Origin: Marsupella aquatica
Lineage: Eukaryota > Plantae > Marchantiophyta
Reading direction: 5' to 3'
Assembly (NCBI GenBank): GCA_973895155.1
Contig: OZ316891.1
Location: 27,905,145 to 27,969,144, forward strand
DNA length: 64,000 nt
Below the pieces are notes generated by a model that was not told the origin of the DNA, did not search any database, and was given only the letters and a program-made list of their open reading frames with translations. Below, piece after piece: positions 11,241 to 48,500 of this stretch (position 1 is its first letter; every line of letters starts with the position of its first letter). Made by a program: the position numbers and the translations under genes.

Positions 11241-11253
11241 TTTTCTACTAGTG

Positions 11254-22221: not shown

Positions 22222-25200
22222 GCGTTTTATGCTGAAATTGAACACCTCAGTCGCAGGCACTGATGCTGAAAGTAATACATATGTGGCTCTGGAAGCCAAT
22301 ATTGGAGACAACGCGTGGACGAGGCAATCGGCGTTCAATGCTGAAATTGAACTCACCTAGCTAGAGGCAGTGTGTAGCTGATGCCCAAAGGAACATCTAG
22401 CTTTGGAAGCCATTCTGTGGAGGAGACACAGGGCAAGATGTATAGGAGGCATTCAATAGGACCCAACTTGTCCAGACATTTTCAGATACAAGTTTTATTT
22501 AGTTAATTGGCTAGATTGAGAGAAAGATCGGGAGTGTTACAAGTTGTGTGCATATTTCTTTTTCATTTAATGTGCTAAATATACATTTTGAAGACTATGC
22601 TTTCTTCTTAAGAACTTCCCTAATTGGTTGTTTTGCAAGCAGTATGACTTGTTTATGGAGCTTGTTTATGGGATTCACATTTTTGGCCTGTGGAAACCCC
22701 TGAGTGTCCAAATTTGCATAATCTAAAAGCACAGTTTAAATGGCATTTAAATGGCATCAGATTAATTAAGGATCTTCCAGATGTCATTTAAGCAATCAAG
22801 TAATAGTTTATCATTCTCACTGTGTGTTGACTGGTCCAACCCAAATGCATACTCACCAGCACAGACATTACTAGATATAGCATGCTCATCCTGGAACATG
22901 CTTGCTTTTTTGTCTTGTAGTGATCTGAAAGTACATAAAATATGAGAGCATAACTAGAAGGATAAAATAATGTAAATGAAGTGTTTACCAAGTTTAATGT
23001 ACACAACTACACAAATAAGGCACAGTGACCAATAAAAACTACAGTCAAGTTTTATGACACAACTATGCTACGGCTTAATTAATTTAATGTGCCTATGAAT
23101 GACACTCATTTCAATAAAAACCATAAACTTAGGAAAGAAAAACATGAGGGGAACTTAAGGCATTATCCTAAAGTATAATACACAGTTGCGCCACTTTTTA
23201 GAGTGGTCGTCATTCAAATTTGAAGGGCATAAAAATTTAAAAATGTGATCAAAGGTAAGTAATAAAATCAAAATGTGGATTGAGTTTAGTGTGACACAAA
23301 AAGTTACACCATTGTCCAAGACAAGCCAAATAATCACATGAGACACCCCAAAAAGTGAAAGACTTTAATTAATGCACGACAATCAATGCACGAGGATCAA
23401 GGAGGATACTCCCTCCAGGCCTCCATGATCCGTATTGTACATACTTAGAGTATTCTACATATTCAATATTATGTGCAACATAGTTCTGTATAATAGTGAT
23501 AAGAGGAGTTTAATTGCTAATAATATTTTAGTCACTTGATAAATAAAAAATTGTTCTCCCAATATTTGTGGTGATTTTTAGAGTCATTTGCACTATCAGT
23601 TTCAATGCCAAAAACAACAGTAATAAGGCCCAAAGACATAGTGAAACGCATGACACGGACGTTGATGGCAAGTTGTCGGGCGAGGGGCACACTTGCAATG
23701 TAGGGCAGCCCCTCGAAGGGCTCCAGTCGCGCACGGGTGGGGAGGGAGGGGGTGGCGAGCGAGTGGAGTGATGGTGAAATGGGGAAAAGGAGGAGGTTAA
23801 GGTTTAAAAGGAACATAAGAGGAAAAGAAGTTTAAAAGGGGGGAAAAACACCTCTCATTTTGTTATACTTTTGTGGTTGTCATAGCCAGTGGTTTGTGCA
23901 ATGACGTCTTTTATTCAAAGAATTTTTTTGTGCAAGGAGAAAAAGAAAAAGGGAACTTTTGTGGCTGCCGTGGCCAGTATTTTGCACAATGATATCTTTC
24001 ATTCAACAAAAAGTTTTGTGCAATTTTTATTCAATGATATCTTTTGCACCATGAGCTATTTCTCAACAACATCTTTTATGCAACGCACGGGGATTGAAAG
24101 GATAGCGATAAAATGGTCATCTTTGCTAAACCCTAAAACCTTAAACCTGAAACCGATAATATAACATTGCGCCAATGTATAGAGTGGTCGCCATTCAAAT
24201 GCAAGGGCATTTTGGGTAAAAAACAAACAAAGAAAAAGACTTGCTCCTTCTCTCCTTGACTTTTTACTTCATAACATCTTTCACATAATGACAACTTGGA
24301 TGAAACGACACCTTTTTTTTCTTTATAACATCTTTTACTTCACGATATCTTTGGCAAAATGACACATTTTTCTTATCAACATCTTTCACATAATGGCATC
24401 TCATGCCTAAGCATGGTTTTTCCTAGTTAAATTTAGCCCTAGAAACACATTTTGTGGAATATGGCAAAATTTGCCACTAATAAAGCCATCTAGTTAATAA
24501 GAGTTCCCAACACCTGCAAAAGAAACATATATAGCTCAGGGCCCACAATCCATTAAACTTAATGAATTACAAATTCTTGTGGCAGGTAATCTATTGTAGC
24601 ACTGATTCTATAGGTATAAGTAAATTGTGATATGAGAAAGGATGCAAAATATTTCTATGGAAAATTTTGAAAGATTGATTCTAAATCAATTTATCTTTGG
24701 GAGACTTTTATATCTATGGACTTTTATATGTCATTGTAGAGTATGTGCCCAAAGCATGTGAGTTGCACAAAAGATGTTGAGATGCATTCATAGAAACTTA
24801 ATATCAATGTCAAGGTGAGGAAAAGAAGTTGAGGTGAGAAAAAGATATCAAGGAGTGAAAAGAAGGCAAGGTGAAAAAGATGAGAAAAAGATGGGGGAAA
24901 AGATGTTGAGGGTTAGGAAAATATTTCATGGCACTAGTACATTTTTGGCCCATTATCCGATGCCACATCCATCGGATCCATTCGGAAATGAAGCAAAGTA
25001 AAATTGGGCTGTTCGAAGCAACACGCTACGCACTTTCCCATTCAAAACGCATGGGATATGGACCATATAGGAGGGTTTGAAAGAGAGGTTTCAGTTTTAT
25101 AGTATCTTGGGTTACTTTTATGGTATCTTAGGAGGGTAACCAAGAGGGGTGGCATATAATTATGGTAGAGAGAAGCATAGGATGGTTGAAGGGAATTGAC

Positions 25201-25231
25201 CATTTAGGTTTTTGCTAACTTCATTGGCTTA

Positions 25232-26280
25232 CGCTTTTAGAGTTCCCAAGGGTCTATGGTGGGTTTTTATTGCATGGCACTCACCTTTCACTTGAAGCGG
25301 GATGAGGTTTTGGTTTTTATGCTAACAATTGAGGGAAATCCCATGTAATCATGATCCAGTGCAGGACCATCACTGCTTCCTCAACTTTTGTCTAATGCAT
25401 ATGCATTGTGGGAACCCGGACATCTAAAAGGTATATTTAAACATGTATGTTAGCAGGGTTTGATAAAGAGATTGTTCATAAACCTTGCCCTTCTTTGTTG
25501 TGCAAGAATATCTATATGCACATGTTTGGGGGTCTACAACTTGAGAGAAGCTAATGGCTATCCAAACTTACTTTTTTGTTTCCAGTATTTTCCTCGTGCT
25601 TCTAGATTCAGCTCATGTTCAATGAGCCACACGACCTACAGGCACTATTGAGTCTGGATCTCATTCAGGTAATTATTGTCCAACTTCATTCTGGGCTTAG
25701 GCCTTTAGAGTTTTCCCAGGGGTCTAGGGTGGGTTTTTATTGCATGACACTCACCTTTCACTCGAGGGGGGATAAGGGTTTAGGGTTTAGGGTTTTATGC
25801 TAACAATTGAGGGGAAAACCCATGTAATCATGATACAACGCAGGGCCAACACTACTACCTCAACTTTTGTCTAATGCATATGCATTGTGGGAACCCGGGC
25901 ATCTAAAAGGTATAACATCATGTATACAGTCAATGTTGTTAGTACAGATTTTTATGCTTGCCCTTCTTTGTTGTGCCATGATATATGTGGGTAAATGTCT
26001 AAGATTCCACAACTTGACGGCTGCTAATTACCATCCAAACTTACATTTTGTTTCCAGTATTTTCCTCCTACTTCTAGATTTGGCAAATGTTCCAAAAGCC
26101 ACGTGACCTATAGGCACTGTTGAGCCCGGGTCTCATTCAGGTAATAATCTAACCTCACTTAGGACATAGGGTATTACAATTTTCCGAAAGGTTATAATGT
26201 GGTTTCTTCTTGCATGACACTCACCTTAATTTGGGTTTCATGCTAACAAATATAAAAGGGTAATAAAACCCCATGTATAA
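25232..26280. repeat. Diverged ~470-480-bp tandem repeat, about 2.2 units
   Basis: gtgggtttttattgcatg.cactcacc recurs at ~25259, ~25729 and ~26199 with colinear downstream blocks (tctaatgcatatgcattgtgggaacccg, tttccagtattttcctc, tctcattcaggtaat). Confidence 0.8.
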
Positions 26281-26383
26281 ACCAACCTAATTGTTTTTTG
26301 AGTTCATTTTTTTAAAAATCGCTTTATATATGGCCTAATTTTTCCTAATCATGCCCTACATGCAATGTAATGTGGCAGTGGAT

Positions 26384-27555
26384 ATGTCCTCTTCCTCTGA
26401 ACTATCCAGTAGTGAGTACTCCTCCGATGACGATATACCCCCTCCTCCTCAGCCCGAGGTTACTGGTCCTCGTGGTCCACCCCGAAGACTTTGTGACTGC
26501 GCCAGATGTGTGGGCCAAATTTCTCAAAAATCTTATGTGTGTGCTCAACATATTGAGAGATATGGACGTCATAGAGGTCTTACTCCCGGGGCTTCTTCAT
26601 CCCATATGGTAAGTTTGTTTCAATTGATTGCCGTTCTTTACTGTTATTTTTAGAGGTGAATCAATGTTTACACATATGGTTTACACATTTGGTTGTTTGT
26701 GGGTGTTTGCATGGAATAGGGATCCAGTATGCGTAGATTGGTGACACCACCACCCTATGTCCCATCACAAGGAGTTTTAGATGCTATAGGCAATGCACTT
26801 TCACAAGCCTTGGGTTTGGGAATTAGTACCAGTCATGGGACAGAAGGGGAACACCCTCATGTGCCCACTAAGACACGAAGACCCCGGTCCAGGCCCCAAT
26901 CCAACAGGAGGCCACGAGCACCCAATGACCCATCCAGAACACTAGTTCAGGGTAGGTGGGGTGTTTGTTCATTCACTGGCAAGTGTGCCTCTATCATCAA
27001 GGATTGGGAACCTATCACTCTTGGCTTGCCTTATTTTACAGATTTTGATGAGGAGATTGTGGTTTGGGGTAGACGTTGGATTGTGAAAACTTCCACACTT
27101 GGAGAGAGACATGGATATGGAGTATTTGCTTGTGAGGATATTATCATGGATGAGGAGGCCAGGGTGGGTCAAGTGTTCGTGGTAGAGAGGGTCCTACTTT
27201 GTTCCCATACGGTGGACCCATCTACAAGAGAAGACATTGGAACATGATCCTTGCACAACATCCTGAGTGGAAAACATATGCTCTAGAGATGGATACTTTT
27301 GATGGTAGCACTAGAAGGTATAGTGAGCAGCGGGTGATAGATGGTGATCCCATACGTAATGGGAATATTGCTGGTTTCATAAATAGTACTGTGGGGACTC
27401 GGCCCAAGCGTAGGGCCAATTGTGAGTGGGTTTTTACTGATGGTCCAATGCCGGCACCATATGGCACGACATATCATAAGGACCATTGCTTAGTTCTTGC
27501 TACTAGGACCATTAGAGCAGGAGATGAGTTATTCACACACTATGAGTGGGATTAG
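26384..27555 (+). CDS. Zn-finger exon (26384-26608) spliced to a SET-domain exon (26720-27555); one frameshift near 27170
   Basis: Exon 1 has CDCARC...HIERYGRH (CACTA transposase-associated finger). SET motifs are VKTS...GYGVFACEDI, FPYGG, GNIAGFINS, NCEW and ATRTIRAGDELFTHY. Phase-0 GT-AG junction. Confidence 0.8.
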
Positions 27556-27766
27556 GAAATCATGTCCTTTATCCTCTTGCACCTATTTTGGACTTCCCAT
27601 TTACTATTATATATATGGCCTTTGGGCTCATTTTGGAGTAATAAGGTTTTAGCCCATGCATTTACTTTAATTCTTAATGTCTTGAATGAATGGTGTTAAG
27701 TCTATTTTAATTTGTTGTACTTGGTCAAATATACATGAGGAGGTTTTTTGGTTGTAATGTGCATAG

Positions 27767-30700
27767 AATGCGCAACCATCTCAACAAATGTTACCACGAA
27801 GGTTGAGAGCAACATATCGGGAGATGGGTATGCCAGAAGAGGGAGAACCATCAGAGGGTGATTCCTCATCAAGTAATGATGTAGGTGGTGCTGATGAGGA
27901 AGCCGCACCTCGGACTGATGACCAGGTCATGCATGATCAAGATAGAGCCATGGATGACTTCATGGTTGATTGGTTTGGTGCCGATGTTGAGGATGATGTG
28001 CCTCACATTGGTCATGAGGTTGGCCCTTCAAATGACCCACGGCCACAACATACTCCAGAGGGACAACAACAATGGAAAGAGGCAGAGGAACATGCTCGAA
28101 CACCTATTTTTGAGGGTGCTCGGTTGAGCCGTCTTTCTGCCATATTGGGGCTCTTGAACATTCAAGCCAAACACAAGACAAGCAATTCTATGTTATCAGA
28201 CATATTTGAATATTGTCATGACTTGATGTTACCCTCGGAGAATGTGTTGCCAGGGACCTGGAAGGATGCAAAGAAGGTTCTCTCATCCATTGGTATGGAT
28301 TACCATATTATTCATGCCTGTGTGAATGATTGCATGTTATTTCACGGGGATACAGCCCATATCACAGAATGCACAGTGTGTCATGAGCCACGGTATGAGC
28401 CAAACATGCTAACCCAGAAGGTACCAAGGAAAGCAGTTCGTTGGTTCCCCATAATTCCTCGCTTGTTGCACATGTATAGATGTTCTGACTTGGCCGAGTT
28501 GATGGTATGGCACAAGAAACATCGTTCGGAGCCCGGTGTCATGCAATTACCAGTTGACTCCCCTACTCATAAACATGTGGAATCAACATGGCCAGATTTT
28601 GAGCGTGACCCTCGGCATGTGCGACTGGGGTTGGCATCAGATGGAGTTAGCCCTCATTCACTTGGAGGGAAGGGGAGACCTACATCGGTCTGGCCTGTGG
28701 TTCTCATGAATTACAACCTTCCACCATGGTTGTCCATGAAAAAAGGTTTTTTGTTGCTATCTTTGATTATCCCAGGGCCAAAGAAGGTGAAGAATATGGA
28801 CACCTATTTGACATTACTGGTTCAGGAACTCCAGAAATTATGGGAAGGAGTATGGGCATATGATGGTCGAAAGACTACAGGGGGTACCCCACGGGTTTTC
28901 AAACTCAAAGGGGTTTGTATGTGGACCATGCATGACTACCCAGGTAAGAACTTTGTTGTTTAAATGCATCATATTCTAATGCATGGTATCCCCTCATTTC
29001 CATGTGCTAGTCCTAACATAATGTGTGTTTATATGACCAGGATTTGGCTTTGTGAGTGGGTTGCAAACCCAAGGCTACAAGGCTTGCTCCACTTGTGGCC
29101 CAAGCCTTGGTGATGTAGCCAAGTATTCATCACATCTTCGCAAGATTGTTTATCTTGGGCATACAAAGTTTCTTCCAATGGGACATCAGATGAGGCGTGA
29201 CCCACTACTATTTTCCTCTATTGATATGCCCTTTGGTGACGAGCGTGATGTACCTGAGCCAACAACTTTTACACACTGGAAAGACATGGCTGCAAGAGTG
29301 GTAGACCCAGAGGATCCCATGCAATTTGACGGTAGTGGCTTGACAAGGTGGAGTATATTAACCACTTTGCCCTATTGGGGTGAGTTGAAGATCCGCCATC
29401 TATTAGACCCCATGCACATTGAGGGAAATGTGGGAAAGGCTTTGATAAAGGCTTTCTATGGAGAGAAAGACACTAACTTCAGGGAGGCTTGTGAGGATCT
29501 TGAGATGCATCCAGACGTGTGGGTCATAAGTGATCCTATCACAGGGATCGAGCATCGACCTTCAGCTCCATGGGTGCTTCCTATTGGCCAGAGAAGGGAG
29601 TTTCAGAATCGCATAGGAGACATGCGGTTTCCTACTGGTTATGGTGCCAATCTCCGAAAGGCCTTTGGGATGGAGGACAATCATAAGTGGCCAAGGTATC
29701 TCAAGACACATGACTACCATAGGTTATTGCAGCACATATTGCTTGTGGCCATAATAGGTTTGGCAAGTGAAGAAGTGCAAGATGCCCTTTGGTCATTGGG
29801 AAAACTATTGAGATGGGTATGCTCTAAGGAGATATATACTGATGAGATCCCTGGGATGGACGTTTTGGCAGCAGAGGTGGTATGCAAGTTGGAGAAGGCC
29901 CTTCCTCCTTCCTTTTTTGACTGTCAAGTGCATTTACTTGTTCATCTTGTTCATGAGGTGGCCATTGCAGGTCCTGTGCATTGTCGGTGGATGTATTGGC
30001 TAGAACGATACATGGCAGTGTTAAAAGGTTATGTACGTAACCGTGCACGGGTTGAGGGAAGCATGGCTACAGGATACTTAGCAGCTGAGAGTATGTTCTA
30101 TTGTAGTAACATATTGGCCACAATTGATTGTACCTCTCCCCGTACTTGGGTAGAGGAGAGGGAAGATGAAGAGGATCGTTTAACAAGTGCTAGGAAAACT
30201 CGCATGTTGACACCAGTGGAGGTGAAACAACTGACCACATTCATGTTGAGTAACAACACTATCATGGAAGAATGGAGGGATTTCTATGAGGATGCCAAAA
30301 GTAACAGCACAAGACCAAGGATTTTTCCAAAGTACCTTGACTATATGAAGGAGAAGTTAGTTGAGGTGGATGACATGGTGGTCAGGGGAGAGAGTGTATT
30401 ACATTTTCCGGCTATCACAAATGCTCGGGGGTTTCACTTCCACAAAAATGGCATATCACGTGTGACGAAGGATAGGGTCATTTTATTGGTTCTAAGGGAA
30501 GACTTAAGAATTTTTGTAGAAGAACAATAGAGTCTTTTAAATTCAATTTTGAGACTTATAAGAACATTAGGGTCCTTTTAATCCAATTTTTAGAATATTC
30601 CAAGAATATTCCAACTTTATAGGGGTTAAAAAATAAAAAAAATTTCTTACATTTTAGGGGGTCCGAGGCCTAAAAACGTCGCAGGCAATGGGGAGGTCCC

Positions 30701-31465
30701 CATATAGTGAGACCCCTGAGCACAAATGATGTTCATACCATTGTTCATGGTCCCTTGAGAGTGGTTACAACAAGGACAGCAATGTGGACACAAGGAAGAC
30801 ATTTCAGGTGATCTCCATCTACCTTAGTAACCTTTGATTTGAATCACTTGGTTTAATTTAATTCATTTGTAATACAAGCACGTATATTGAAGAGGCAGAT
30901 TCTTGGTGTGTTCAATTAATTGGAATATGTTTGTGTCTATTTTTGTGTAACATATCCTTATGGTTTGATGGATTTTAGGATTTCTTCCCTTGATGAGAAG
31001 AGGGGTCGTACCTTTGATTGTGGAGTTCAAGGACAATTCTCTCAAGATTCCCGCAGCAGTCGCCATGACACAAATATTATTCGAGATGTTGTGCCACATT
31101 ATGGAAAGGTAGAAGAGATTCTAGTGATATCTTATGATGCACAATCAAAGTTTGAAGAGTATGTCTTCAAGTGCAAGTGGTTCAAAGTGAACCTTGTAGG
31201 TAACAATCCTACTGTGGTTCAAGATGAGTGTGGATTTACACGACTGAAGACGTCTGCCACTAGTTTCCAGCCATCTCATTGGCAAACATCAGAGCCGTTC
31301 ACTTTTCCAAGTCATGTGGAACAATGTTTCTATATTCCATACCCCCCAAACCCAGAGGAATGGTCACTTGTCATCACATATGTGCCACGGTCTCGATCAA
31401 TCGTTGGGGAAAAGCCTGATATTCTGGTTGTGTCCCAACCTGAAGATGATGAGGACCAAGTTTGA
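27767..31465 (+). pseudogene. tnpD: CACTA-2 transposase (exons ~27767-28943, 29041-30807 split by the MITE, 30979-31465), probably preceded by exon 26384-26608
   Basis: RHVRLGLASDGVSP, WPVVLMNYNLPPW, WTMHDYPG, LDPMHIEGN, LKTHDYH, FFDCQVHLLVHL, RWMYWLER and DUF4216-like FKCKWF...DECGFT...EPF.FPS.VEQCFY. Removing the MITE restores FPAITNDVHTIVHGP. Confidence 0.9.
30424..30720. mobile_element. 297-bp MITE with 15-bp imperfect TIRs and an 8-bp TSD
   Basis: TIRs CTCGGGGGTTTCACT and AGTGAGACCCCTGAG (13/15 match). TSD CACAAATG at 30416-30423 and 30721-30728. Confidence 0.9.
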
Positions 31466-32391
31466 GGGGTCTGTGTTTGTGGATATATAGCTACACGGAT
31501 ATATAGTTAGATTTGATGATATGAAGATTTCTCTTCTCGGTAGAATGGAGAAATATGTGCTTCTCAATTATCAATAAACTTATGTTTTGTAAGTATATCA
31601 TTTTCAAATGTTGTTTTCTATATCTCCCATCCCTACCCCACACTCACCACACCTTTTGGTAGACTTTATGCAAAGAAAACTCATGTTGCTTGTAGTCCTC
31701 TATCCTCCATGCTTTCCTAATCCCCCCCTAGCTGTTCTCCTTATTACTTGTACCCACCTCCCTCCTCCTTTCTTTCATTGTCTGTCCCTCTTATTAAACC
31801 CTCCTTCCTCCTTCCTCTCCTTGTCCCAACCCCTGGCTTTCTATTTCAACCCTATACTTTCCTTACTTTCCACCCCTGTCCCCCACTCTTACCTATACAA
31901 CCTAGCTTCTCTCCTCCCTCCTAAACCTATACCCTTAAACCTCACTAGTAGAAAATGGGGCCTTTTATGACTATGACACATATGACTTATGTGCTCAAAT
32001 GACAAAATGTGTAAATGACATAACATAAATGACATTGAAATGACTGTCCAAAATGACGGGGTGCAAAAAATGACTAATACTTGCAATAGTGTCATTTAAA
32101 CCAATGAGCCAAATGACTTTGACTGCTATAATGACAACAATCATGAGTTGTAGTCATTTTGGACAGTCTTTGTGAATGACACAATTAACAAAAACTCTGT
32201 CATATCAGTGTTTCACATATGGGAAGTCATTTCAGACGACGGTGACTAATGACTAATAAATCAAATATGCAAATATCAGTGTTTAAAAATGTTAGTAGTC
32301 ATTCAAACCAAAAGTTATAAATGACATGATAAACAACATATGACTATTTTGAGGTTTATGGTTTAGTATATGTTTAGGGTTTAGGGTATGA

Positions 32392-35286
32392 TTAGCCGGC
32401 CATTAGGGATGCTACCCACTCCACATGGTGCGGGATGGGGTACTTGTACACCCTGAGCCACTAGTTATGCCACTTGGCCTCCACAACACATTTTAAAACA
32501 CACATTTTGCATCATGGAAGGGCATCACCCAACTTTGGGCAAAACACTCCCAACTTGTATGACTTTGGAGTCATTTGCCCAAAGGGGTGCAAACCATTCT
32601 AATTTGGTCATTTGCAAGGGATCTTGAGTCATTTGTGCAGTTGACTAAAAGTTTTTGTCATTTGTGGAGTGCCGAGGGGTGTCATTTAAGCAAATGACAC
32701 AAAAATAAGTCATTGATGATGTCAATGCGGCAGTCAAGCATGCCATGGACAATATGACTCCTTGGCATCGTTGGGGGCTTATTCGCAATATACGTGATCG
32801 TAGCCGGCCATTAGGGATGCTACCCACTCCACATGGTGCGGGATGGGGTACTTGTACACCCTGAGCCACTAGTTGTGCCACTTGGCCTCCACAACACTTT
32901 TTAAAATACACATTTTGCATCATGGAATGACATCACCCAACTTTGGGCAAAACACTCCCAAGTTGTATGACTTTGGAGTCATTTGCCCAAAGGGGTGCAA
33001 ATCATTCTAATTTGGTCATTTGCAAGGGATCTTGAGTCATTTGTGCGTGTGACTAAAGGTTTTTGTCATTTGTGGAGTGCCGAGGGGTGTCATTTAAGCA
33101 AATGAAACAAAAATAAGTCATTGATGATGTCAATGCGGCAGTCAAGCATGCCATGGACAATATGACTCCTTGGGGTCGTTGGGGGCTTATTCGCAATATC
33201 TGTGATTGCAGCTGGCCATTAGGGATGCTACCCACTCCACATGGTGCGGGATGGGGTACTTGTACACCCTGAGCCACTAGTTGTGCCACTTGGCCTCCAC
33301 AACACTTTTTAAAATACACATTTTGCATCATGGAATGGCATCACCCAACTTTGGGCAAAACACTCCCAAGTTGTATGACTTTGGAGTCATTTGCCCAAAG
33401 GGGTGCAAATCATTCTAATTTGGTCATTTGCAAGGGATCTTGAGTCATTTGTGCGTGTGACTAAAGGTTTTTGTCATTTGTGGAGTGCCGAGGGGTGTCA
33501 TTTAAGCAAATGACACAAAAATAAGTCATTGATGATGTCAATGCGGCAGTCAAGCATGCCATGGACAATATGACTCCTTGGGGTCGTTGGGGGCTTATTC
33601 GCAATATCTGTGATTGCAGCTGGCCATTAGGGATGCTACCCACTCCACATGGTGCGGGATGGGGTACTCGGCAACCCTTGGCCACTAGTTATTCCACTTG
33701 GCCTCCACAACACTTTTTAACACACACATTTTGCATCTTGGCAGGGCATCACCCAACTTTGGGCAAAACACTCCCAAGTTGTATGACTTTAGGGTCATTT
33801 GCCCAAAGGGGTGCAAACCACTCGCATTTTGTCATTTGCAAGGGATATAGAGTCATTTGTGCGCTTGACTAAAGGGTTGTGTCATTTGTGGAGTGCGAGG
33901 GGATGTCATATGAGCAAATGACACAACTAGGGGTCATTCATGATGTCAATAGTGCAGTCCTGCATACCAGGGACAATATGACTGCTTGGGGCCTCGGGGG
34001 GCTGATTGGCCATATTGGTGCTGTTAGCCGGCCATCAGGGACGCTACCCACTCCACATGGTGCGGGATAGGGTACTCGGCAACCCTTGGCCACTAGTTAT
34101 TCCACTTGGCCTCCACAACACTTTTTAACACACACATTTTGCATCTTGGCAGGGCATCACCCAACTTTGGGCAAAACACTCCCAAGTTGTATGACTTTAG
34201 GGTCATTTGCCCAAAGGGGTGCAAACCACTCGCATTTTGTCATTTGCAAGGGATATAGAGTCATTTGTGCGCTTGACTAAAGGGTTGTGTCATTTGTGGA
34301 GTGCGAGGGGATGTCATATGAGCAAATGACACAACTAGGGGTCATTCATGATGTCAATAGTGCAGTCCTGCATACCAGGGACAATATGACTGCTTGGGGC
34401 CTCGGGGGGCTGATTGGCCATATTGGTGCTGTTAGCCGGCCATCAGGGACGCTACCCACTCCACATGGTGCGGGATAGGGTACTCGGCAACCCTTGGCCA
34501 CTAGTTATTCCACTTGGCCTCCACAACACTTTTTAACACACACATTTTGCATCTTGGCAGGGCATCACCCAACTTTGGGCAAAACACTCCCAAGTTGTAT
34601 GACTTTAGGGTCATTTGCCCAAAGGGGTGCAAACCACTCGCATTTTGTCATTTGCAAGGGATATAGAGTCATTTGTGCGCTTGACTAAAGGGTTGTGTCA
34701 TTTGTGGAGTGCGAGGGGATGTCATATGAGCAAATGACACAACTAGGGGTCATTCATGATGTCAATAGTGCAGTCCTGCATACCAGGGACAATATGACTG
34801 CTTGGGGCCTCGGGGGGCTGATTGGCCATATTGGTGCTGTTAGCCGGCCATCAGGGACGCTACCCACTCCACATGGTGCGGGATAGGGTACTCGGCAACC
34901 CTTGGCCACTAGTTATTCCACTTGGCCTCCACAACACTTTTTAACACACACATTTTGCATCTTGGCAGGGCATCACCCAACTTTGGGCAAAACACTCCCA
35001 AGTTGTATGACTTTAGGGTCATTTGCCCAAAGGGGTGCAAACCACTCGCATTTTGTCATTTGCAAGGGATATAGAGTCATTTGTGCGCTTGACTAAAGGG
35101 TTGTGTCATTTGTGGAGTGCGAGGGCATGTCATATGAGCAAATGACACAACTAGGGGTCATTCATGATGTCAATAGTGCAGTCCTGCATACCAGGGACAA
35201 TATGACTTCTTGGGGCCTTGGGGGGCTGATTGGCCATATTGGTGCTGTTAACGGACCATTAGGGATGGTACCCACTCCACATGGTA
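32392..35286. repeat. 408-bp tandem array, about 7 units, two sequence subtypes
   Basis: The anchor gctacccactccacatggtgcggga recurs every 408 bp (ORF track offsets 32645/33053/33461 and 33879/34287/34695/35103). The later units are near-identical. Confidence 0.95.
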
Positions 35287-36140
35287 TTTTGAAGTCATTT
35301 CTAAATTGTTGTGTCATTTATAAGCTCGTGAGTGAACTTTCTGGTCATTTGTGTAGTGTCGTGAGATGTCATATTTGCAATTGACTATAGTACAAGTCAT
35401 TCCATGTGTCAATGGCAGTGTCATTTAATCCTTCTAAGGCAACATGTCCGGTGAGGGCCCCAAGTGTTGCAAGTTTACCCCTATTTGTTGATTTGCCAAA
35501 AAATTAGGGTCATATGTGGCCATGACTAAATTGGATGGGATTAGTCATCTAATATGTCATTGTCTAAGTATGACAACATCCACCAAATTCTATTTTACCA
35601 ATGTAGAGACGGTTCTCTCAGGGGATTTGGAGACATGCTTTTGGGGGGATTTTACATGTATATTAAAGCGACTATGAGGGGAGGGATGTTACCATGGCCT
35701 CCTTTTACTTTAAGGGGTTTCATGGGTCCCCCTTCATCACCACCACCACCACTTCCCTCTCCCCGATTTGGCATTTGTTTCCCGTTCCCATTCCTGTTGG
35801 ACGTTGCATCTCCACCGTCCACATGTCATCCCCTCATGCCCTGGCACTGTCTTCCTTTAGTCGCGGGAACCTTGTGAAGCACCTAACTCACATTGGACTC
35901 CGTTTTGTGAAGAACATTGGCAGAGCATCTTGAATGTCGAGGGTTTCTGGCATTTGCGCGTAGTCTTAAATGAAGGGTTTATCGTTGCAAGGCAGAGTCG
36001 TGTGCAGAGTTCCACTTACCACATTCTCACAAGCAACGTCTTTCACAAGTGCGGGATTGTATTGGGGACTTTAGTTGCAACCTCTAGGCTGCATCATAGG
36101 GTGAACAAGTGCGAAGGAGTTTCAGGGTTCTCAGCGGCTG

Positions 36141-37560
36141 TCCTGCCATCACATTTTGTCTCCTATTGCGCCTATGCATTGTGCTTTTTGGCAAAGGACC
36201 CTCGTTTGGCCTGGGTTTTCTTCGGGCATTTTCCTCCAACGCCCGTCATTTGTTAACATAGTCGACGACATGTGTATGGAGTCTGCCTGATCCGGGCCTT
36301 GCCTTCTCGCAACTGTCGTTAAATCTCTACGTTGCGTTCCTTTTGCTCTACTGCATCCTGCCTTTGTGTTCCCTCTGCTTTCGGCTCTGCATTTTGGTTA
36401 GTCGATCGAGGTTTAGGCGACCTTGGTTTTGGGCTGTACTCATCGGGAGGCACGCAAGCTTGCTATAGAGGAGCTGCGCCGAGGCCGGAAGGCTTCTCCT
36501 TTTGCCATATAGTTTGCTTCTTGGTGGCCTTCAGTTTAGTCCTGCTTGGTGGCCTTCAGCTTAGTCCTGCTTGGTGGCCGAGACTACATTGTCCTGCGAG
36601 TGGCCAAGCTCTACTACAAGTGAGTTGCAATCAGGGACCTGCTAGCAGCTGCCTGCAAGGAAGGGGCGACCCGCTGCTGCAAGGGAGGGGTGTGAACGGA
36701 GCGGCTACCTACTGCTTCGGGGATTGGGCTAAGTGCGGCTGCAACTAGGTATTTTGTCCATGCTATATAAATCCTACTGCTTGCAATGTGTGTTGTAATC
36801 TGTTCTTCCTGTGATTCAATTTGTTGCTAATATTCTATGTAGAGCTCTCCTGCCATCACATTTTGTCTCCTATTGCACCTATGCATTGTGCTTTTTGGCA
36901 AAGGACCCTTGTTTGGCCTGGGTTTTCTTCGGGCATTTTCCTCCAACGCCCGTCATTTGTTAACATAGTCGACGACATGTGTATGGAGTCTGCCTGATCC
37001 GGGCCTTGCCTTCTCGCAACTGTCGTTAAATCTCTACGTTGCATTCCTTTCGCTCTACTGCATCCTGCCTTTGTGTTCCCTCCGCTTTCAGCTCTGCATT
37101 TTGGTTAGTCAATTGAGGTTTAGGCGACCTTGGTTTTGGGCTTTACTCATCGGGAGGCGCGCAAGCTTGCTACAGAGGCCGGAGCTGCGCCGAGGCCGGA
37201 AGGCTTCTCCTTTTGCCATATAGTTTGCTTCTTGGTGGCCTTCAGTTTAGTCCTGCTTGGTGGCCTTCAGCTTAGTCCTGCTTGGTGGCCGAGACTACAT
37301 TGTCCTGCGAGTGGCCGAGCTCTACTACAAGTGAGTTGCAATCAGGGACCTGCTAGCAGCTGCTTGCAAGGAAGGGGCGACCCGCTGCTGCAAGGGAGGG
37401 GTGTGAACGGAGCGGCTACCTACTGCTTCGGGGATTGGGCTAAGTGCGGCTGCAACTAGGTATTTTGTCCATGCTATATAAATCCTACTGCTTGCAATGT
37501 GTGTTGTAATCTGTTCTTCCTATGATTCAATTTGTTGCTAATATTCTATGTAGAGCTCTC
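36141..37560. repeat. Near-identical ~710-bp tandem duplication
   Basis: tcctgccatcacattttgtctcc...ttctatgtagagctctc at ~36141-36849 and ~36848-37560. Confidence 0.93.
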
Positions 37561-39478
37561 GCTTAGCTCATGAATGCTTTTGGACCCCTTTGTCTGTTTT
37601 TCTAGCTTTCTGAATGCCATATGCAACGACATCTTTTACCCCATGACTAGGCCTAGCATCTGCTACCTACTTAGGGATTGTATGCCAACGCTACCTGAAA
37701 CCCCACCTCAATCCTTGAGACTGCTGTTGCTTTTTAATGCTGTCATTTGCACTTACACAGCCCAATGCTGTCAAATTTTGTTTTCAGTTTCAATGAAGGG
37801 CAATGTCTGGCGAGTAGTAGCAATAGCGATCAACCAAGAGCAGAGTCCCAGTTTGAAGGGCGTTTCCATTCTGGTCTGTATAGGTTTCCATGCATGTTCG
37901 TGCCTATCTCAATCTATTTTTTTTCCTGCTCTAAGATTGATTTTCCATTCTCGGATGTTCCTGGCTCAGCCCTGGGTTCGAAGAGGTTTTGGCAAAAATG
38001 AGTTTTGGCCTGTTTGAATTTGGGCTCTAGATGCCATACAATACAATGAACCTGTACTTTGAAGCCATTCATTGCGTCGAGACAGCGGTATTAGACGTCC
38101 CTTGTTCTCATTGTCATGATATTACCTGAAGAAAATAAAATGCAAGCTTTTAGCGTAGATCGACTGAAATTAAGGTACCATGTCAGAAGAGACAGCAGAT
38201 AGCCTTTTGCCCCGCCTTTTGCTTCCAGGTCGCTTTTTGTTGCGGTGGTGCTTCATTCCAAGGTGACGTTTTCTACAAAAATCCTCAACAAAGTTGCTAC
38301 AAACTCACTAATTCCCTTGGAGGGCGGTTCTGATTTAATTCATGAATTCCGTATTGTCTCCATCACTGTCGTTCGCTTCATCAGTTTTTTTCTATGCTTC
38401 CTATCTTGTGTTTCCACATATCTTGATCAGCGTGAAATGATCACTACAATAATTAACTGTGTAGCTAACTGTAGGTTGTGGAAAAACCCGAAGCTGGAAG
38501 CTTAATTTAATCTTACCTTTTGTTCTTGGCTCAGCCCAGGGTGGGCTGTGCATCATTTTATGAGCTCAGAACCATTCTGCAGAGCAAAATATATCGGTGG
38601 AATATATTTGTGAGATTTAAAGAAGTTGAATGAATTGATGTCCGTCAAGATCAATACGCAGGTTCTCATTATTTGTAGAAACAACAACAAATTGTAACAA
38701 TCTTTGACAATATGAAAGAAATTGATTGTGCTCTTCGTAGGAGATATACTTTGCTCATTGTGTGTAATGTTGTGCAAGAAACTCCTTTTCCAAAATCAAA
38801 GATTGTTTCTCTGATTTGAGGTGGATATTGGAGCTACAAGGACCTGCGGGTGAGCTTTGAGAATCTCCTTGCTGCAAGGTGAGAGTCTTTCCTGGTCGTG
38901 AACTTATGTCCTCTCATAGTCTCATTTAATTTTGAGGAACAATCCATATGCTTCCGTGGCATGGGTCATCTGTCAAATTTTTACTGTGCATTGCTCAAGT
39001 TTGTGGATGGTTCACTTCATTATTCGGGAATGTCCGCATTCACAGAATAGATTGCTTTTCTCCTGCCATCCCTTGGCCACTTGCTTTGCATTTCCATCTG
39101 CATTCCGCTTATTGCTCTGCCTCTCTCCCAATCTCCTTCAAATAACCATTACCACTTACAATATTCTATGAGGAGTAGGTTGTGTACCCAAGTAAATGAT
39201 TTCCAATCTAATATGCTCAGTGTTTACCTGTTGTTGGCATGCATGTACTATTCTATTGTCAATGAAGGCTAAAGTGGGGGCTGCCTTAACGTCAGTTGGA
39301 GTACTCTACCTCAATTGTATGTACAGTATCCTTCACTTGTGCACACATTTGCTTCACATGATACTCTAGAAGATAGTATGGAAGGGTTTGGAGTGGTCTA
39401 GAACAAATTCGTATGCTGTGCAATATGACACAGAAGAAAGAAGTGCAATTGTGTATTTGATTAGGTAGTGCTGCAATC

Positions 39479-42400
39479 ATGGCTTCTTCTAGCCAGGCTG
39501 GGTCACGCAACACTGGACATACAACAGAGGCAGTTCACCATCCAACTGTGCCTTCCTTCGATCCGAGTCGAATCCAACGTCGAGATGATAATTTATGGGC
39601 CCGAGAACAGAGAGCCTGTGCTGGTAGTGCTGATCATAGAATGTATTGCCCTTGCATGCGATGCAAAGGGAATTATAAGACCACTCGAAAGACTACTCGA
39701 CAACATCTTGTTAAGCATGGTCGCTACCCTGCTTGTAGAGTCTGGGTAGGAGAGGGTCAGGACTCTTCTGATGAGGAGTGGAGAACTGATTATATACGCC
39801 ACTATGGCCCTGAGGCATTGAAAGTAGGAAATTGCCCTGAGGCATTGAAGGCAGGAAATTGCCCTGAGGCAACCCACACAGACCACCCTGCAATAGATGT
39901 TGAACAGCAGGTCAGAGCTTTACTTGAGGAGACAATGGCTAGAGCTTATGAAGAAAGTGATGAATTTGTGGATAACGTAGCTCCTTTTGATTTAGACTCA
40001 ATGTTTCAGAATGATGAGAATGATCAAAACGATCAGAATGAGCAGAATGAGGCAGATACAGCCTCTACTGAGGCCAATCATGAGGGCACAAAACTCTCAG
40101 GACCTCCAATAGACCCTGTGCCTGTCCAAGGGTCTTTAGAAGAGGCCATGCGACCTTTATATCCAGGGAGTAAGATAGATGTAGTTTCTTTTATGTTGTT
40201 GTTCTTGAACATTTGTCACAACAATCGTTTCTCAAACATGGGAGTGAATGCCATGCTGTCTTTGTTGACTGAGCATGGAATGCCAACAGAGCACACTCTC
40301 CCTAAGAACCTATATGCTGCGAAACAATTACTGCGGAAACTAGGTTTAGATTATGAGAGAATCCCAGTATGTGAAAATGGATGTATGTTATTTAGAGGTG
40401 ACACTGCGCACTTGGAAAATTGTTCCAAGTGTGGCCAGCCAAAGATGAAGTTAGTGGGGAATTCAAAACAGCCTGTGAAGGTGTTGAGATATTTCCCTAT
40501 AATCCCTCGATTGAAGAGATTGTATGCCACGAAAGGGACTTCTAAACTCATGACTTGGCATCATGAGAACAAGAGCAAGGACAACATGGTCTGGCATCCA
40601 GCAGATTCAAAGGCATGGAAACATGTGGATACAGAGATCGACCCTGATTTTGCTGCTGAGCCAAGGAATGTCCGAATGGGATTGGCACTTGATGGGGTAA
40701 ATCCATTTGGGAATAATTCCACTGCTTGGTCTACCTGGCCAATCTTGCTGCTGAATTATAATATCCCTCCTTGGCTTACCACAAAAAAATTCTTTGTCAT
40801 GCTGGCTCTTCTAATTCCGGGCCCTGAGTCAGTAACTGAGGAGCAGTTTGATATATACATGGCTCCAGTCGTGGATGAGCTTGTGACACTATGGAAAGAA
40901 GGAGTGGATTGTTTTGATGTTCTACCAAGGCCTGGATTGCCTCAACAATTCAAGCTAAGGGCTTCGGTATTGCGGACAATCAATGATTACCCTGCATATG
41001 GTTTAGTTTCTGGCCAACAACATGCAGGGTATAGAGGATGTGTTGTTTGTGGGCCAAAATGCATGGCACAAGGTTCTTCACACTTGAAAAAGTTACTGTT
41101 TGCTGGCCATCGTCGATGGTTACCACCTAGGCATCCTTTTCGCAATCAAGAAGTGGCAAAATACTTTGATGGGGAGGTTGAGGTAGAACCTGCACCATGT
41201 AGAATGTCCAGCTCTGATAGGCTACGTTGGGGAGAGGAGACAACTGCGTATGTGAAAAAGAAAGCAGGGAATAAATTTGATGATGATGATTCTCCAATAA
41301 AGACGTATGGAGTGAAGAGGGCTACTGGATTATACAAGTTGCCTTACTGGAGTGTAAGTATCTGGTTCCTGATTGTCCAATCCACTTAGTTTGTGTACTC
41401 CTATGCAGTAAAGTTCTGCATTCTTGATTCTAACTCACTTTGTATTGTACTGTCTAATGCAGCAACTTCTCATCAACCATTGTCTTGATCCAATGCATTG
41501 TGAGAAGAATCTTGCCCACAACATTGTACATACTATCCTGGGAACTAAGGATACTCCTGCTGTTCGAGAGGACATGAAAGACCTGCAAGTGCGAGAACAC
41601 CTGTGGCTTGTACCGAATAAGGATCCAAAAGGTCCTAAGGTCATGCCACCAGCCCCATATTGCTTGAGTAAGAGTGAGAAGACAAAGTTCTTGGAGGTAT
41701 TGTTGACCTTCAAAGGGCCCACTGGTTTTGCTAGTTCTTTGGCTAGGTGTGTTACAGTCAAGAAGAAGTTATCTGGGTTGAAATCTCATGATTTCCATCA
41801 CCTCATGCAACAAATTATCCCATTGGCAACTATGGGATTACTTGATGAAGGTGTTCGCTTGGCCATCGCTAGGGTGAGCAATGTGTGGCGTAACATTTGT
41901 GCCAAGGTTTGGGATCCTTCACAGTACAATGACCTGATGATGGATGTTGCATTCACACTCTGCATTATGGAAATTCACTTCCCACCAAGTTTCTTTGATG
42001 TGATGACCCACTTGATGATTCATGTAGTGGAGGAACTAGACCTGTGTGGCCCAGTGAACATTAGATGGATGTATCCAATAGAAAGACATCTGAAGACCTT
42101 GAAAGGTTTTGTTCGAAACAAGGCACGTCCAGAGGCTTCCATGGCTGAAGGCTACATTCTAGATGAATCCATAGGATTCCTTTCTGAGTACATGATAGAT
42201 GCTAAAGGGACAGGAAAGAGAACATGGGACTTGGAGGAGAATCCTGGTGTTGCAGGCATTGTCTTGGAAGGAGCTGCAAAAGAGAGAACCATGCAATGGA
42301 GTGAAATGATAGCTATGCATCATTACATACTGGAGAATGAAGAGCAAGTGAAACCATGGTACAGGTATGAGCTTGGTCCATTGAGGCATGTTGATTATGA

Positions 42401-43334
42401 TTATCATTATTAATTGACAATCAATAGTCTAAAATGTTTTGTTGTTTGTGTGGGACTAGAAGTTGACATTGGTAATTGTTGCCATGCATGTAGGATTTAT
42501 GATGATGCCAATGAGGCCATCACCAAGCGCAGAGCAGAAATCAGGAAAGAATGGATGAAGAATCCAGGGAATCGAAAGCGTCCTGTACAGTATCCCTCTG
42601 ATTTGAGAGAGTTACCTCCTTTCACAGAATGGTTTGAAGCTTCAATTAGGTCCCACCATTTTGAGGATGAGGTTCAAAGATCTGTGCTGACAGGGTACAG
42701 TGTACCACCTAGTTTGAAGGTGTTGCAATATAAGGCCTGCAGAGCCTATGGGCATCATTGGAGAACCGTTCCATCACTTGGCTCTTTGATTGACTGTGAC
42801 TCTTTTGGGTTCAAGACATTTGATTCTGGGATGGCTTCTACATTCACTGAGAAGCAAGTGAATAGAGCAGGTGCAACAATAGATGAGTTGGTGCAGTATG
42901 TGGGAGTGTTGACAGACATATTAGTACTAAACTATGGGGGATTGAGAAAGGAAGTGGTCCTTTTCAAAGGGCGATGGGCAAACCCATCTTGGACTCCTAA
43001 AGCCTCTGCAAGTATGAGGTATTCAGAGTCTGGCCTTTGGCAGGTGAATTTTCAGAAGGAGCTTGGTGCTTCCAAAAGAATGGACTATGTATTCCCACGG
43101 CAGTTAGAGCAAGTGTTCTTTTACCCGAATGAGAAGGGGATTGCATGGAGGACAGTCCTCCACAAAGAATCCAGGTCGACAAGGGTGGCCGGTGAATATA
43201 TGGAAGTTGATTTCCATGATACTATGGAAAACAATGCCAAGTATCACATACAGCTAGCAGAAACCTATACCAGTAGATCGCAGCCTAGCCCAAGTACTAC
43301 CGACAAAGGAAAAAGGAAGTATAAAAAGAAGTAA
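39479..43334 (+). CDS. tnpD: CACTA-3 transposase, spliced 39479-41353, 41463-42364, 42494-43334; about 1205 aa, frame intact
   Basis: Same motifs and intron positions as 2911-6904; the splices give a 3618-nt continuous frame. Confidence 0.93.
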
Positions 43335-43412
43335 TCAGGTTGTAGCTTAGTTACAATCAGGGTATGTTTGGTTTATTTAATTTAGACTAAAGTTTTATCC
43401 ATGGATGCTCCA

Positions 43413-46400
43413 GTTTGTGAATGCAGCCTACCGTTCCATATGAGGAGGAATGAAATAGGAACATAGCAGAAATCAACAAGAAATTGGCAGAGCTACTTGG
43501 TGACAGTCCAAGCCTTTTCATGTGTGTATGAACTTGTCCTGTTGCAATCGGATTGAATTACAGTCTTTGCTCTTATGTCAAATCAGTTTCTTCCATGCTG
43601 AACACATGTTCTCTCTTATGGTGTTGATCTATTAATGTTTGGTTTGTCAGAAAGAGTGCAGCACAGGTAGGGCCCAAAAAGAGAAGTCGTGCACATCGAG
43701 CATCTACTACAACTCAGATAACCACACAGAGAAGGCAGAGCTCTAGATTATCAAAGCTTGCGACAGTGAACATGGAAGAGTCTGGTGAGGAGGGCTCTGG
43801 ATCAGAATACGACACTGAGGCTGAGTACGCAGCAGATGATGGACCAGATAATTTGTCCAAGGTAATCTTGTTTTATTTCAATACCCTTGAAGGGAGTAAC
43901 ATGTATGTTGAACAGTAATGTCATCAAGTTACAGGTCTGGACATTGTGTGTTACTTGGCCAGGAGGTACAAAAGGAACCACAGAATAAGTCTGCAGAGAA
44001 ACAACCTGCCCCCAACAGGGTAGGGCCTACAATGAATGGAATGGTGCAATGTTGGAGAGACCCTGCCACTGGCGAGCTATGGCAAAGTGAGAAACCCTAA
44101 ACACTTTCCAATGCATTGTGATTTTTCATTTCCTCAAAATCTCAAAATTCTGTGAAATAATGTTGATTTATGTCAACAATAAGACTCATGACTTGAGTGG
44201 TTGGTGTGACTTTTAGTGGTTCCATCAGCATCCCTCGGAAAATCAGGACAGTCTGGAGTAGTGAGCTCTACTCAACGTTCAGGTATGAAGGTTCAGTTTT
44301 CTTTGTGTATTACACAATTATGAGATCTAATTTTGCAAGCTGCAATGTAGAGAACACCAGCAATCCATCCCAGCAGCGTAGGCAGTCTAGGCAGGCCAAG
44401 AGGAAATTTGATGCTACTTATCAACAGAGGAAGTCTCAAAACCTGAAGGGCAAAGAAATAGCGGTAAGACTTGAATTACTCCACAGATCTACTGTCAGTT
44501 GAGCTTTGTCCTTTCGTGGCCTACAAATAGTATAGGGCAAGGTGTACAATTTTATTTACACAGTAACTGTGGTGCTTGTTCATGTGTAGAAATTGATCGA
44601 TCATGGTGGTTTTTGCAGGTTTTTGACAATGATATTGACGATTCTCATCCAAATAAACAGTACTGGATGGAAGACCTGCGTACCGCTGTGCTTAGATGTT
44701 TTGACATTTCCGTGCCAGATTGGAACCAACAATCTCCAAAGACTGTTGAAGACGTGTGGGGATTGATGAATGCTGATTGGGAGTACATTGGTGGAGGAAA
44801 AATAAGTGACAAGAAATTTAGCAGTCACTGTCGTACATTACTGAAGCGAGAACGTCACAAGTTGCATACTTATTGGAGGAAGGTATGTGGTGCTGATCGT
44901 TCCAAACCTGGACCCTCATATTTGGATCCACAGAAGTGGGCAAGACTAGTGGATCATTTCACAAGTCCAGCATTGATTGCAAAGAGCGCTGTCATGAAGG
45001 CAAGGAGAGCAGAAGTGGTAAACATGGAGCATTTTGGCAGGGGAGGTGCTAATGCAGCAGCCAAACGATTGGTAAGAACATTCCATGATTTTACTGTTTG
45101 CTACAGTTGTCCACTAGAATCTCATATTCTGTTTGCTAGAATAGTCCATGATGTTAGCTTTCATTGACATTTATCTTGGATTGTATTTGATTGTCTCTTT
45201 CCAGAAGCGGCAAAGAGGGGCAAGTCCAGGTATAACAAAGGTGAAGGCCCCTATTCCTGTTTGTTCAGCTCCAAAGGTGGTTGTCAGCCCCTGTGTGGCA
45301 AGCGCCGAACAACCTGGTAGTTTTGTTGGGCTTGGATCCGCACCTGGATCAGCACATGGATCAGCAGTATGTAACCCTAAACCCATTCATGTCTGAATAT
45401 CTAAGTTGTTGGACTATGGTAGTTTGTGCCCAGTACTATCAAATTGTTGGACTCTAGTTGTTTCCCAACAGACTCACAAAACTAACTTGTCTGTTTGTGA
45501 ATGCAGACTCCACTTTCAAGGGATACTGCTCCTGTTAATCCACAACGAATATGTAAAATAGAGCAGAGTTTGGAGAGTTTGACATCATTGATGACTAACT
45601 TCATTGTACAGCATCAACAACAATGGCAAATAAGCCAATCCAATGATGTACCTACATCATTGCCAAGTGGTAGTAAGGTTGCTATTGAACCAAAAGGCAA
45701 TAGCAGAAAATGGTCTTTGACTTTCTCTGGTGAGTGCCCTGGTAAGTACTTGATAACTTGGCCCATTTAGACTTGCACAAAATCCAATCTCTTGCACAGA
45801 ATATGGTCTCTTCTTACAGTTCAATTTTTCTAAGCAATGGTTGTTTTGGATTGTCATAGCTTCTTCAGGAGAGAATCCTGTATCACAGGGAGCAAAGACC
45901 ATTTCTTCAGGAGAGAATCATGATTTGCAAGGAACAAATGTTGACGTGATAACAATGAAAGAGCCATCTCTTGTACAAGAACAACGAGAAGACCCAATTA
46001 CTGTCCTGCAGGAGCAAGATGATGTTGAGAAAGAAACCACAGATGTAGTGGCTAAGGAACATGCAACACCACTGAAGAAATCAAGTTTTGTTCCTGTCTC
46101 GCCTAGTGTACATCGTGTACCAGTAGTCTCTCCAAACCCAACGGCAAAGGTAATGAAATTGTATTATTTTTTTGCATAGTGAGTTTCAGTTGTGTTGTCT
46201 CTCTATCTGTTTTGTATCAGTAAATACTAATTGAAGTGTGGTTGACATTAACAGTTTATGCGAGGAGATGCTGTTGAGTTAAGAAGCATTGTGGACCGCT
46301 CTGTACTTGCATTGGCTCAAGTTACAGGGCTGCCAGGAGAAGATCGGTTTCATTGTGCCTCGTTTGAGAGTCCTTTTATTCGCGTAAGTGTGAAGGAAGT

Positions 46401-46515
46401 GTTTTGTCCTGAAGCGGCTTTGCCAATTCCAAATGCAGAGGAGAAGCAAATATGTTTAGGGGATGTGAAAGGGATGAATGCTTTATGGAATTCTAGATAC
46501 CTTCGAAAGTATTAG
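43413..46515 (+). CDS. Multi-exon TnpA-like gene of CACTA-3; boundaries approximate
   Basis: Exons paralogous to 7-10 kb: FDNDIDDS..NKQYW...KWARLVDHFTSP...HFGRGG, and last exon RGDAVELRS...GMNALWNSR. Confidence 0.75.
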
Positions 46516-48485: not shown

Positions 48486-48500
48486 AAATATGTAGTAGTG

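Follow-up and report, generated by a model that had tools for sequence, protein, structure and literature searches.

We analysed a 64,000-nucleotide stretch of the genome of the liverwort Marsupella aquatica (contig OZ316891.1, forward-strand positions 27,905,145 to 27,969,144; hereafter the window), which holds a defective copy of a DNA transposon with a SET-domain exon lying between the first exon and the body of its transposase gene. The element is a CACTA (En/Spm) transposon by its transposase domains, its CACTA...TAGTG termini and its subterminal repeats. The layout, in which a small finger exon precedes first SET and then transposase, is real: it is conserved and, judged by selection, functional. 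Purifying selection acts on the SET core, in which the ratio of non-synonymous to synonymous divergence (dN/dS) is about 0.15. Our reading of this broken CACTA copy, to which we give a probability of about one half, is that the finger would be spliced to either SET or transposase, and that the first product would be a likely lysine methyltransferase that would keep the element expressed by acting on its chromatin.

Finger exon and its two acceptors

The gene is laid out as follows (a caret marks a splice site):

26384..26608 (+): exon 1; serine/acidic leader, then a CxCxxC-x13-H finger; phase-0 donor ATG^GTAAGT
26609..26719 (+): predicted intron 1; 111 nt, 45% T; acceptor AATAG^GG
26720..27555 (+): SET exon; linker, family-specific N-terminal extension, SET core and stop TAG; predicted alternative terminal exon
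27556..27766 (+): predicted SET 3' untranslated region and remainder of the long intron; acceptor TGCATAG^AAT
27767..28943 (+): transposase exon 2 (Transposase_21); finger absent
29041..30807 (+): transposase exon 3 (DUF4218); split by a miniature inverted-repeat transposable element (MITE)
30979..31465 (+): transposase exon 4 (DUF4216), by Pfam match

An initial annotation, made from the letters alone, had placed a phase-0 donor at 26608 and phase-0 acceptors before 26720 and 27767. All three hold: the start ATG at 26384 opens 225 nt, or 75 codons, that run up to ATG^GTAAGT, and each acceptor AG opens an in-frame open reading frame (ORF). Because each of these AGs is also part of an in-frame TAG that bounds its ORF, phase 0 by itself is no evidence, and it is conservation that counts. 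The transposase body was said to lack the finger, and we found zero CxCxxC motifs in it. Pfam PF00856 (SET) matches 27154-27552 (E 1.6e-5, passing the curated cut-off), and the ORFs that follow match Transposase_21, DUF4218 and DUF4216 (E 1e-38, 7e-34 and 3e-8). An overlapping conserved frame within the SET exon was ruled out by stops in all five other frames.

Exon 1 has no Pfam match of its own. We built a profile from eight exon-1 fingers and ran it on 1259 window ORFs, with 20 shuffled decoys as control. Besides its own finger, the profile matched above threshold only the N termini of the two further CACTA transposases that the window encodes (E 5e-6 and 2e-3; 22.3 and 14.1 bits, against 11.1 bits for the best shuffled decoy), which themselves match PF13963, a transposase-associated domain, weakly and below the cut-off. 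A search of Atlas with the finger gave no usable match. The finger is a candidate DNA-binding module that may recognize the element.

A search with the SET sequence returned 20 proteins, comprising gene models from Sphagnum, Calypogeia fissa and Riccia sorocarpa together with metagenome proteins. The same finger-SET join is present in the gene models of Sphagnum (P0001-3, P0011, P0014) and Calypogeia (P0004, P0053), where the junction residues of P0053, SSSHM^GSSMRR, are identical to those of the window, and the Riccia models P0061 and P0062 likewise join finger to SET; these models are predictions, and the evidence behind them is not visible. P0056 carries finger and SET within one 424-amino-acid protein on a 1528-nt ENA contig, and would be a contiguous finger-SET frame if it was called without splicing.

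Among 35 metagenome loci, a transposase piece follows the SET domain in the same orientation in 23; most of the other 12 end too soon, and three (L022, L031 and L032) run into other sequence. The donor GT is present in 19 of 19 covering loci and the SET acceptor AG in 22 of 24, a count from which 11 spurious fuzzy matches, in loci without coverage of the site, are left out. The transposase acceptor AG was found in 21 of 23 loci, and the seven terminal nucleotides of that intron in the window (TGCATAG) are the same as in the Sphagnum-type family. Since most of these loci belong to that one family, only three families (window, L006 and Sphagnum-type) count as independent, so that the donor and SET acceptor are compared across three families and the transposase acceptor across two. 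Between families the introns differ in length (111 versus 117 nt, and 211 versus 146 nt) and diverge in their interiors, and their ends agree. The stop after HYEWx is kept in the window, L006 and Sphagnum-type copies, and no conserved donor was found 3' of it across the families, which argues that SET would be a terminal exon.

To measure selection, we compared the window with 21 loci by the Nei-Gojobori method. dN/dS was 0.14-0.23 for the SET core (bootstrap upper bounds up to 0.37), 0.08-0.20 for the finger, 0.08-0.09 for the transposase and 0.41-0.55 for the linker. Synonymous divergence is lower in SET (0.6) than in the transposase (1.3-1.5). An exchange of modules, which this could indicate, was rejected, as four-fold sites do not differ significantly (0.35-0.39 in SET versus 0.44-0.46 in the transposase; Fisher p 0.22-0.38); these values are consistent with co-inheritance of the two.

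Of the alternative products that the initial annotation had proposed, finger-SET is well supported by these comparisons and finger-transposase indirectly. We consider the predicted finger-SET join very probable, because donor and acceptor are conserved in three families, gene models match it and the product is under purifying selection. The predicted finger-transposase join is probable: TGCATAG^AAT is conserved, related transposases carry an N-terminal finger and the body here has none.

SET subfamily and predicted enzyme

An exhaustive profile search yielded 136 representatives at 50% clustering, 51 of them at E<=1e-30 and 125 of them new, and on its sequence the window SET is assigned to this distinct SET subfamily. 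The window protein has the core motifs GYGVFA, FPYGG, FINST and ELFTHY, which we take to correspond to motif I (GxG), YxG, the NH region and ELxxxY with its catalytic tyrosine in SET lysine methyltransferases. In 40 new representatives at E<=1e-30, each motif-I glycine is kept in 34 of 35, the two defining positions of Y/F-x-G in 38/38 and 37/38, the Asn/Gln in 37/38, the glutamate in 29/29 and the catalytic tyrosine in 27/27. Across all 125 new representatives, there is next to no variation at motif-I Gly, Y/F-x-G, the second Tyr, Asn, Glu and the terminal Tyr, and at what is presumably the SET switch position there is a small or aliphatic residue. Eleven of the 125 also match the finger profile, entirely or in part.

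The NH motif departs from the canonical form: the asparagine is kept, and serine takes the place of the histidine in 37 of the 38 close representatives and in 56 of the 59 distant ones. PR/SET enzymes likewise are not known to carry this histidine. The initial annotation had read INS rather than INHS and no post-SET in the window protein, and both are borne out by FINST and by a stop three residues past the catalytic tyrosine. The subfamily as a whole is of interest in that it keeps the catalytic residues without the NH histidine or a post-SET. P0003 alone represents 360 sequences, and hundreds of bryophyte 'SET-domain genes' are likely to be transposon copies.

An AlphaFold model of the SET part of P0024 (predicted local distance difference test score (pLDDT) 84.8, predicted template modelling score 0.80; a full-length model from a 16-sequence alignment reached a pLDDT of 36.6) has the SET fold, with a best Z of 11.7, a root-mean-square deviation of 2.5 and 124 aligned residues. 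Foldseek gave E 5e-7 with TMq 0.48 (highest TMq 0.50), and Atlas also assigns the protein to SET. The end of the model aligns with SET7/9 residue 337, SET8 residue 339 and MLL1 residue 3948. Sequence searches of the PDB found nothing significant, with 0 matches in one and a best E of 0.2 in the other.

The SET cores of Calypogeia (P0004, P0053) and Sphagnum (P0003) are 79-80% identical, and are about 45% identical to Riccia. A tree of 26 rows (midpoint root; 5 of 23 branches starred; no clade test) puts the window, Sphagnum and Calypogeia SETs into one starred group without Riccia. The tree and the identities fit horizontal transfer or old paralogous lineages.

Proposed mechanism, rival explanations and known systems

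In the mechanism that we favour, one promoter would drive a pre-mRNA in which the finger exon is joined to the near (SET) or the far (transposase) acceptor. Use of the proximal acceptor, with the stop and 3'-end formation inside the intron, would give a 350-amino-acid finger-SET protein; skipping of the SET exon would give a finger-transposase, and the balance between regulator and enzyme would depend on the acceptor chosen. The finger would bring SET to the element or to its transpososome, where SET would mark the element's chromatin and so favour expression. The target and direction of the marking are the weakest steps, and a histone target at the element with an anti-silencing role is a tentative proposal that we hold at somewhat less than even odds. 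The fullest version, namely that an old and widespread bryophyte CACTA lineage makes a self-targeted histone methyltransferase of a post-SET-less class, escapes silencing by it, would be the first land-plant transposon to encode a chromatin writer and has spread horizontally between mosses and liverworts, seems to us rather unlikely.

Several observations weigh against this model. One concerns the splicing: a conserved in-frame methionine lies no more than eight codons into both downstream exons, so that each could start alone. We also found no gene model that joins finger to transposase, in searches that were seeded on SET. It may be that exon 1 serves SET only and that the transposase starts at its own methionine, without a finger or from another leader. 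This would fit the methionine that both families have as the eighth codon of exon 2, and Arabidopsis En/Spm families are described as alternating between spliced and split-gene layouts (PMC13547354). We regard such separate starts as very improbable, given that the conserved acceptor lies exactly at the start of the ORF, that only 146-211 AT-rich nucleotides separate the SET stop from it, and that the finger is present in related transposases.

Other points bear on catalysis. Tails past the catalytic tyrosine have a median of 7 residues (10 or fewer in 43 of 65 scored), and a Cys-rich post-SET tail was found in none of the 125 representatives. In solved SET enzymes the post-SET is described as contributing to the cofactor site and the peptide groove (PMC3868588); its absence counts against stand-alone activity, and activity may require a partner. 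The SET domain could instead be catalytically dead and serve as a lysine-reading or protein-binding module, as the missing post-SET and the His-to-Ser change would allow. We consider this decidedly unlikely, since representatives with as little as about 40% identity still keep, almost without exception, the cofactor-binding Gly and Asn and the catalytic Tyr. Pseudo-enzymes seldom retain cofactor-binding and catalytic residues. From these residues we lean towards an active methyltransferase, perhaps one that needs a partner or a peptide to close its cofactor pocket.

The substrate is a further point. H3K4, H3K27, H4K20 and non-histone enzymes match the fold with tied scores (Set1/COMPASS Z 11.7, PRC2 11.6, SET7/9 11.2, SET8 11.2), so that the substrate class is not readable from the model. 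If splicing proceeds as proposed and the enzyme is active, its target could be a non-histone protein such as the transposase, the second-ORF product described below or a host silencing protein. No histone enzyme is clearly nearest and SET7/9 is among the tied folds, and the absent post-SET together with long family-specific loops suggests an unusual substrate groove. Against this, histone enzymes make up most of the top fold matches; other transposon SET cargos are termed histone methyltransferases too, by description only (PMC12730594). A non-histone target is in our view unlikely.

The family's history also speaks on both sides. The SET exon is as depleted in CpG and CHG as the transposase (CpG observed/expected 0.2-0.5), which argues for long-standing methylation of the element. 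Pooled comparisons within the Sphagnum-type family give a dN/dS of 0.72 for SET, close to the 0.67 of the transposase, and such values are what dead copies should show; among 16 metagenome loci that cover the whole SET exon (L022 dropped as spurious) the exon is broken in 11. Decay in all copies, which the initial annotation had named as fatal to its proposal, is not what we found: five of the 16 are open, and the dominant, near-identical contig of run X1 lacks the frameshift of the window copy. The methylation signature would also suit a finger-SET protein that represses its own element, by writing a silencing mark or by competing with the transposase through the shared finger, and so limits transposition. 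The repressor isoform of the P element is a parallel, a truncated product can compete through a shared first exon, and PRC2 is among the tied folds. Such self-repression is markedly improbable, as high-depth, near-identical copies with an open SET frame point to recent amplification, and the known plant transposon regulators VANC and TnpA are described as anti-silencing.

Finally, the SET product might not be the element's only regulator. The initial annotation saw no TnpA-like gene, which is true of the window copy and cannot be extended to the family. The 5' arm of Sphagnum-type elements carries an ORF of about 458 amino acids on the opposite strand, head-to-head with the finger exon (L002:7557-9343 (-), P0143). 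It has 148 database relatives, and the species-named ones among the 120 listed are Sphagnum models. We found for it no Pfam family above the cut-off and no match within the window, and hhalign comparison with the second ORFs of the window's other CACTA elements scored no better than shuffles. TnpA homology was not apparent from those shuffle-level profile scores, and the ORF may or may not be TnpA-like. As the window copy appears truncated, the gene missing there says nothing about the family. With a second gene in relatives, which could already serve a regulatory role, the idea of SET as a substitute for an absent TnpA loses weight.

The favoured model has partial precedents. In Arabidopsis Spm3, alternative splicing is described as yielding TnpD and an anti-silencing TnpA (10.64898/2026.08.24.746577; the accessible text of this source has zero occurrences of 'SET domain' and 'bryophyte'), and TnpA/TnpD alternative splicing in En/Spm is covered in PMC13547354 (PMC4158355 provides exon-number background only). 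Like maize En/Spm and ATENSPM3 as described, the window element is a CACTA that is predicted to make a transposase and a second, probably regulatory product from one pre-mRNA. The alternative product here differs in being a SET-fold enzyme whose exon precedes the transposase body and which has a coding finger exon in common with the transposase, whereas theirs is the DNA-binding TnpA, and their splicing is reported as shown while that of the window element is predicted.

SET cargo has been described in the red-algal Plavaka elements, also of the EnSpm/CACTA lineage, whose accessory gene PAG2 combines SET with an N6-adenine methylase (bioRxiv 10.1101/2025.02.11.637652). PAG2 is a separate gene in a three-gene cassette, and the window SET is nested in the transposase gene; the two are set apart by description, not by sequence. 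SET genes are further described in HarbingerS and oomycete MuDR elements (PMC12730594) and in Helitrons (bioRxiv 10.1101/2025.02.11.637652), which resemble the window element in bearing SET and differ from it in superfamily and host, their SETs being accessory genes by description.

VANDAL elements and their VANC proteins offer, as described, a factor that acts on its own element's chromatin, a function shown for VANC and proposed here; VANDALs are MuDR elements. VANC is not known to be a SET enzyme. SETMAR, too, places SET and transposase at one locus, as a host gene fused to a domesticated mariner, whereas the SET exon described here is closed by a conserved stop and belongs to a mobile element. 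We did not find a single ORF of the SETMAR type, with whole SET and transposase. Several divergent gene models do fuse pieces of SET to transposase sequence (P0018, P0020, P0214, P0227, P0239, P0256), with four different junctions; we read these inconsistent junctions as annotation artefacts, which nevertheless show adjacency.

In the sources available we found no publication that describes a bryophyte CACTA with a SET exon, or SET cargo combined with alternative splicing, although Repbase may contain an entry. Each of the two, SET cargo in DNA transposons and alternative splicing in En/Spm, is known by itself. Where VANC and TnpA are described as sequence-specific regulators and SET cargos are known from oomycetes and red algae by description, a compact 350-amino-acid finger-SET protein with many intact copies would make the question of whether a transposon can write its own histone mark testable in a moss or liverwort.

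Window copy, its family and neighbouring features

The element and its interruptions are as follows:

25070..48500 (+): defective SET-bearing CACTA copy; left edge approximate; no 5' terminal inverted repeat (TIR) found; a MITE and a nested CACTA lie within it
25217..26227 (+): tandem duplication of about 465 bp upstream of exon 1; blastn self match, 78% over 557 nt
27156..27160 (+): 5-bp insertion shifting the SET frame, from comparison with DNA contigs
30416..30720 (no strand): MITE, 305 nt including an 8-bp target duplication; joint 30415-30721 in runs X1 and X2; inverted ends
31943..47620 (+): nested, different CACTA in the 3' arm; CACTAGTA ends, 2-bp CT duplication
47921..48500 (+): 3' arm and 3' TIR (reverse complement CACTACTACATAT); 15 TTGCGA/TCGCAA subterminal motifs

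The lesion in SET, initially annotated as a 1-bp frameshift near 27170, proved to be five extra bases at 27156-27160, the removal of which brings both SET halves into one frame. We compared the window with contigs from seven of 16 listed sequencing runs, which we read as DNA because long contigs run across the introns. Depth lacking the five bases was 630.8 of 630.8 in X1, 63157 of 92375 in X3, 1588 of 1796 in X4 and 4 of 4 in X14. The gap was not seen in X2 (0 of 11386), X5 (0 of 106) or X7 (0 of 5), where the listed X2 and X7 pieces are divergent relatives. A single X1 contig spanning 26900-27193 shows one mismatch and the 5-bp gap. Since the five bases are missing from other copies, we discarded the idea of a programmed frameshift at 27156. 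With the insertion, 27153-27163 reads AGG-CC-AGG, which resembles a transposon excision footprint and might be one.

The element is tiled by X1 contigs that carry 0-3 mismatches, at a depth of 506-631 against 18 in the left-flank bin; contig depth is not a copy count, and the X1 depth suggests that the family is young, has multiple copies and keeps its SET frame open. The junctions 26608-26720 and 26608-27767 were not among the joints listed from these DNA contigs in the seven runs (15 of 174 in one comparison and 15 of 43 in another).

The 3' end at 48500 is fixed by homology to the end of L020. At the other end, four loci with three distinct flanks (L002, L004, L034 and L035) have a 5' CACTACAAC end that was not found in the window copy, and L004 has 13 TTGCGA/TCGCAA motifs within its first 700 nt. 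None of the copies retrieved extends over both ends. In Sphagnum-type elements the CACTACAAC start lies 3.2-3.5 kb upstream of exon 1. The motif was absent from 23000-25600 of the window, and X1 contig depth climbs from 148 to 764 near 25070; with no motif-bearing 5' end upstream and this rise in depth, the window copy appears 5'-truncated. CACTAGTAC at 24932 was considered as a 5' TIR and set aside, having no matching duplication and no TTGCGA repeats and being unlike the CACTACAAC end of the family. Sphagnum-type transposases also have an extra GT-AG intron (L011:2628-2773) that is absent from the window's family.

The MITE breaks the transposase in the window copy, and the 30415-30721 joint in X1 and X2 identifies other copies without it. 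With its 8-bp target duplication it is presumably hAT-like, and its contig depth is very high (63130 in the X1 bin). At the nested CACTA, an X1 contig continues beyond 31943 into other sequence. In its 5' arm this element has an array of seven to eight 408-bp units and two 707-bp units; its transposase spans 39461-43334, and near 44475 there is a second gene.

Elsewhere in the window, an ORF at 1642-2313 (+) encodes NSD-type PHD fingers (Pfam E 2.5e-7) and sits 570 bp upstream, on the same strand, of another CACTA transposase (2884; 3' TIR at 11253). The ORF may represent cargo with a chromatin-reading role, and the nested CACTA at 31943-47620, a related element, has no such ORF. An ORF for a NIF/FCP1-like phosphatase at 48435-49283 (-) (Pfam E 5e-15) takes its final codons from the 3' end of the SET element. 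Two related ORFs of the RING-variant type lie at 16812-17219 and 21676-22221 (+), 81% identical over 213 nt. At 59043-62115 (+), two long ORFs lie among CTAGCGCC-GGCGCTAG palindromic repeats; the second has a weak N6_N4_Mtase match (E 8e-4, below the cut-off), and the region is possibly another element with a DNA-methylase cargo.

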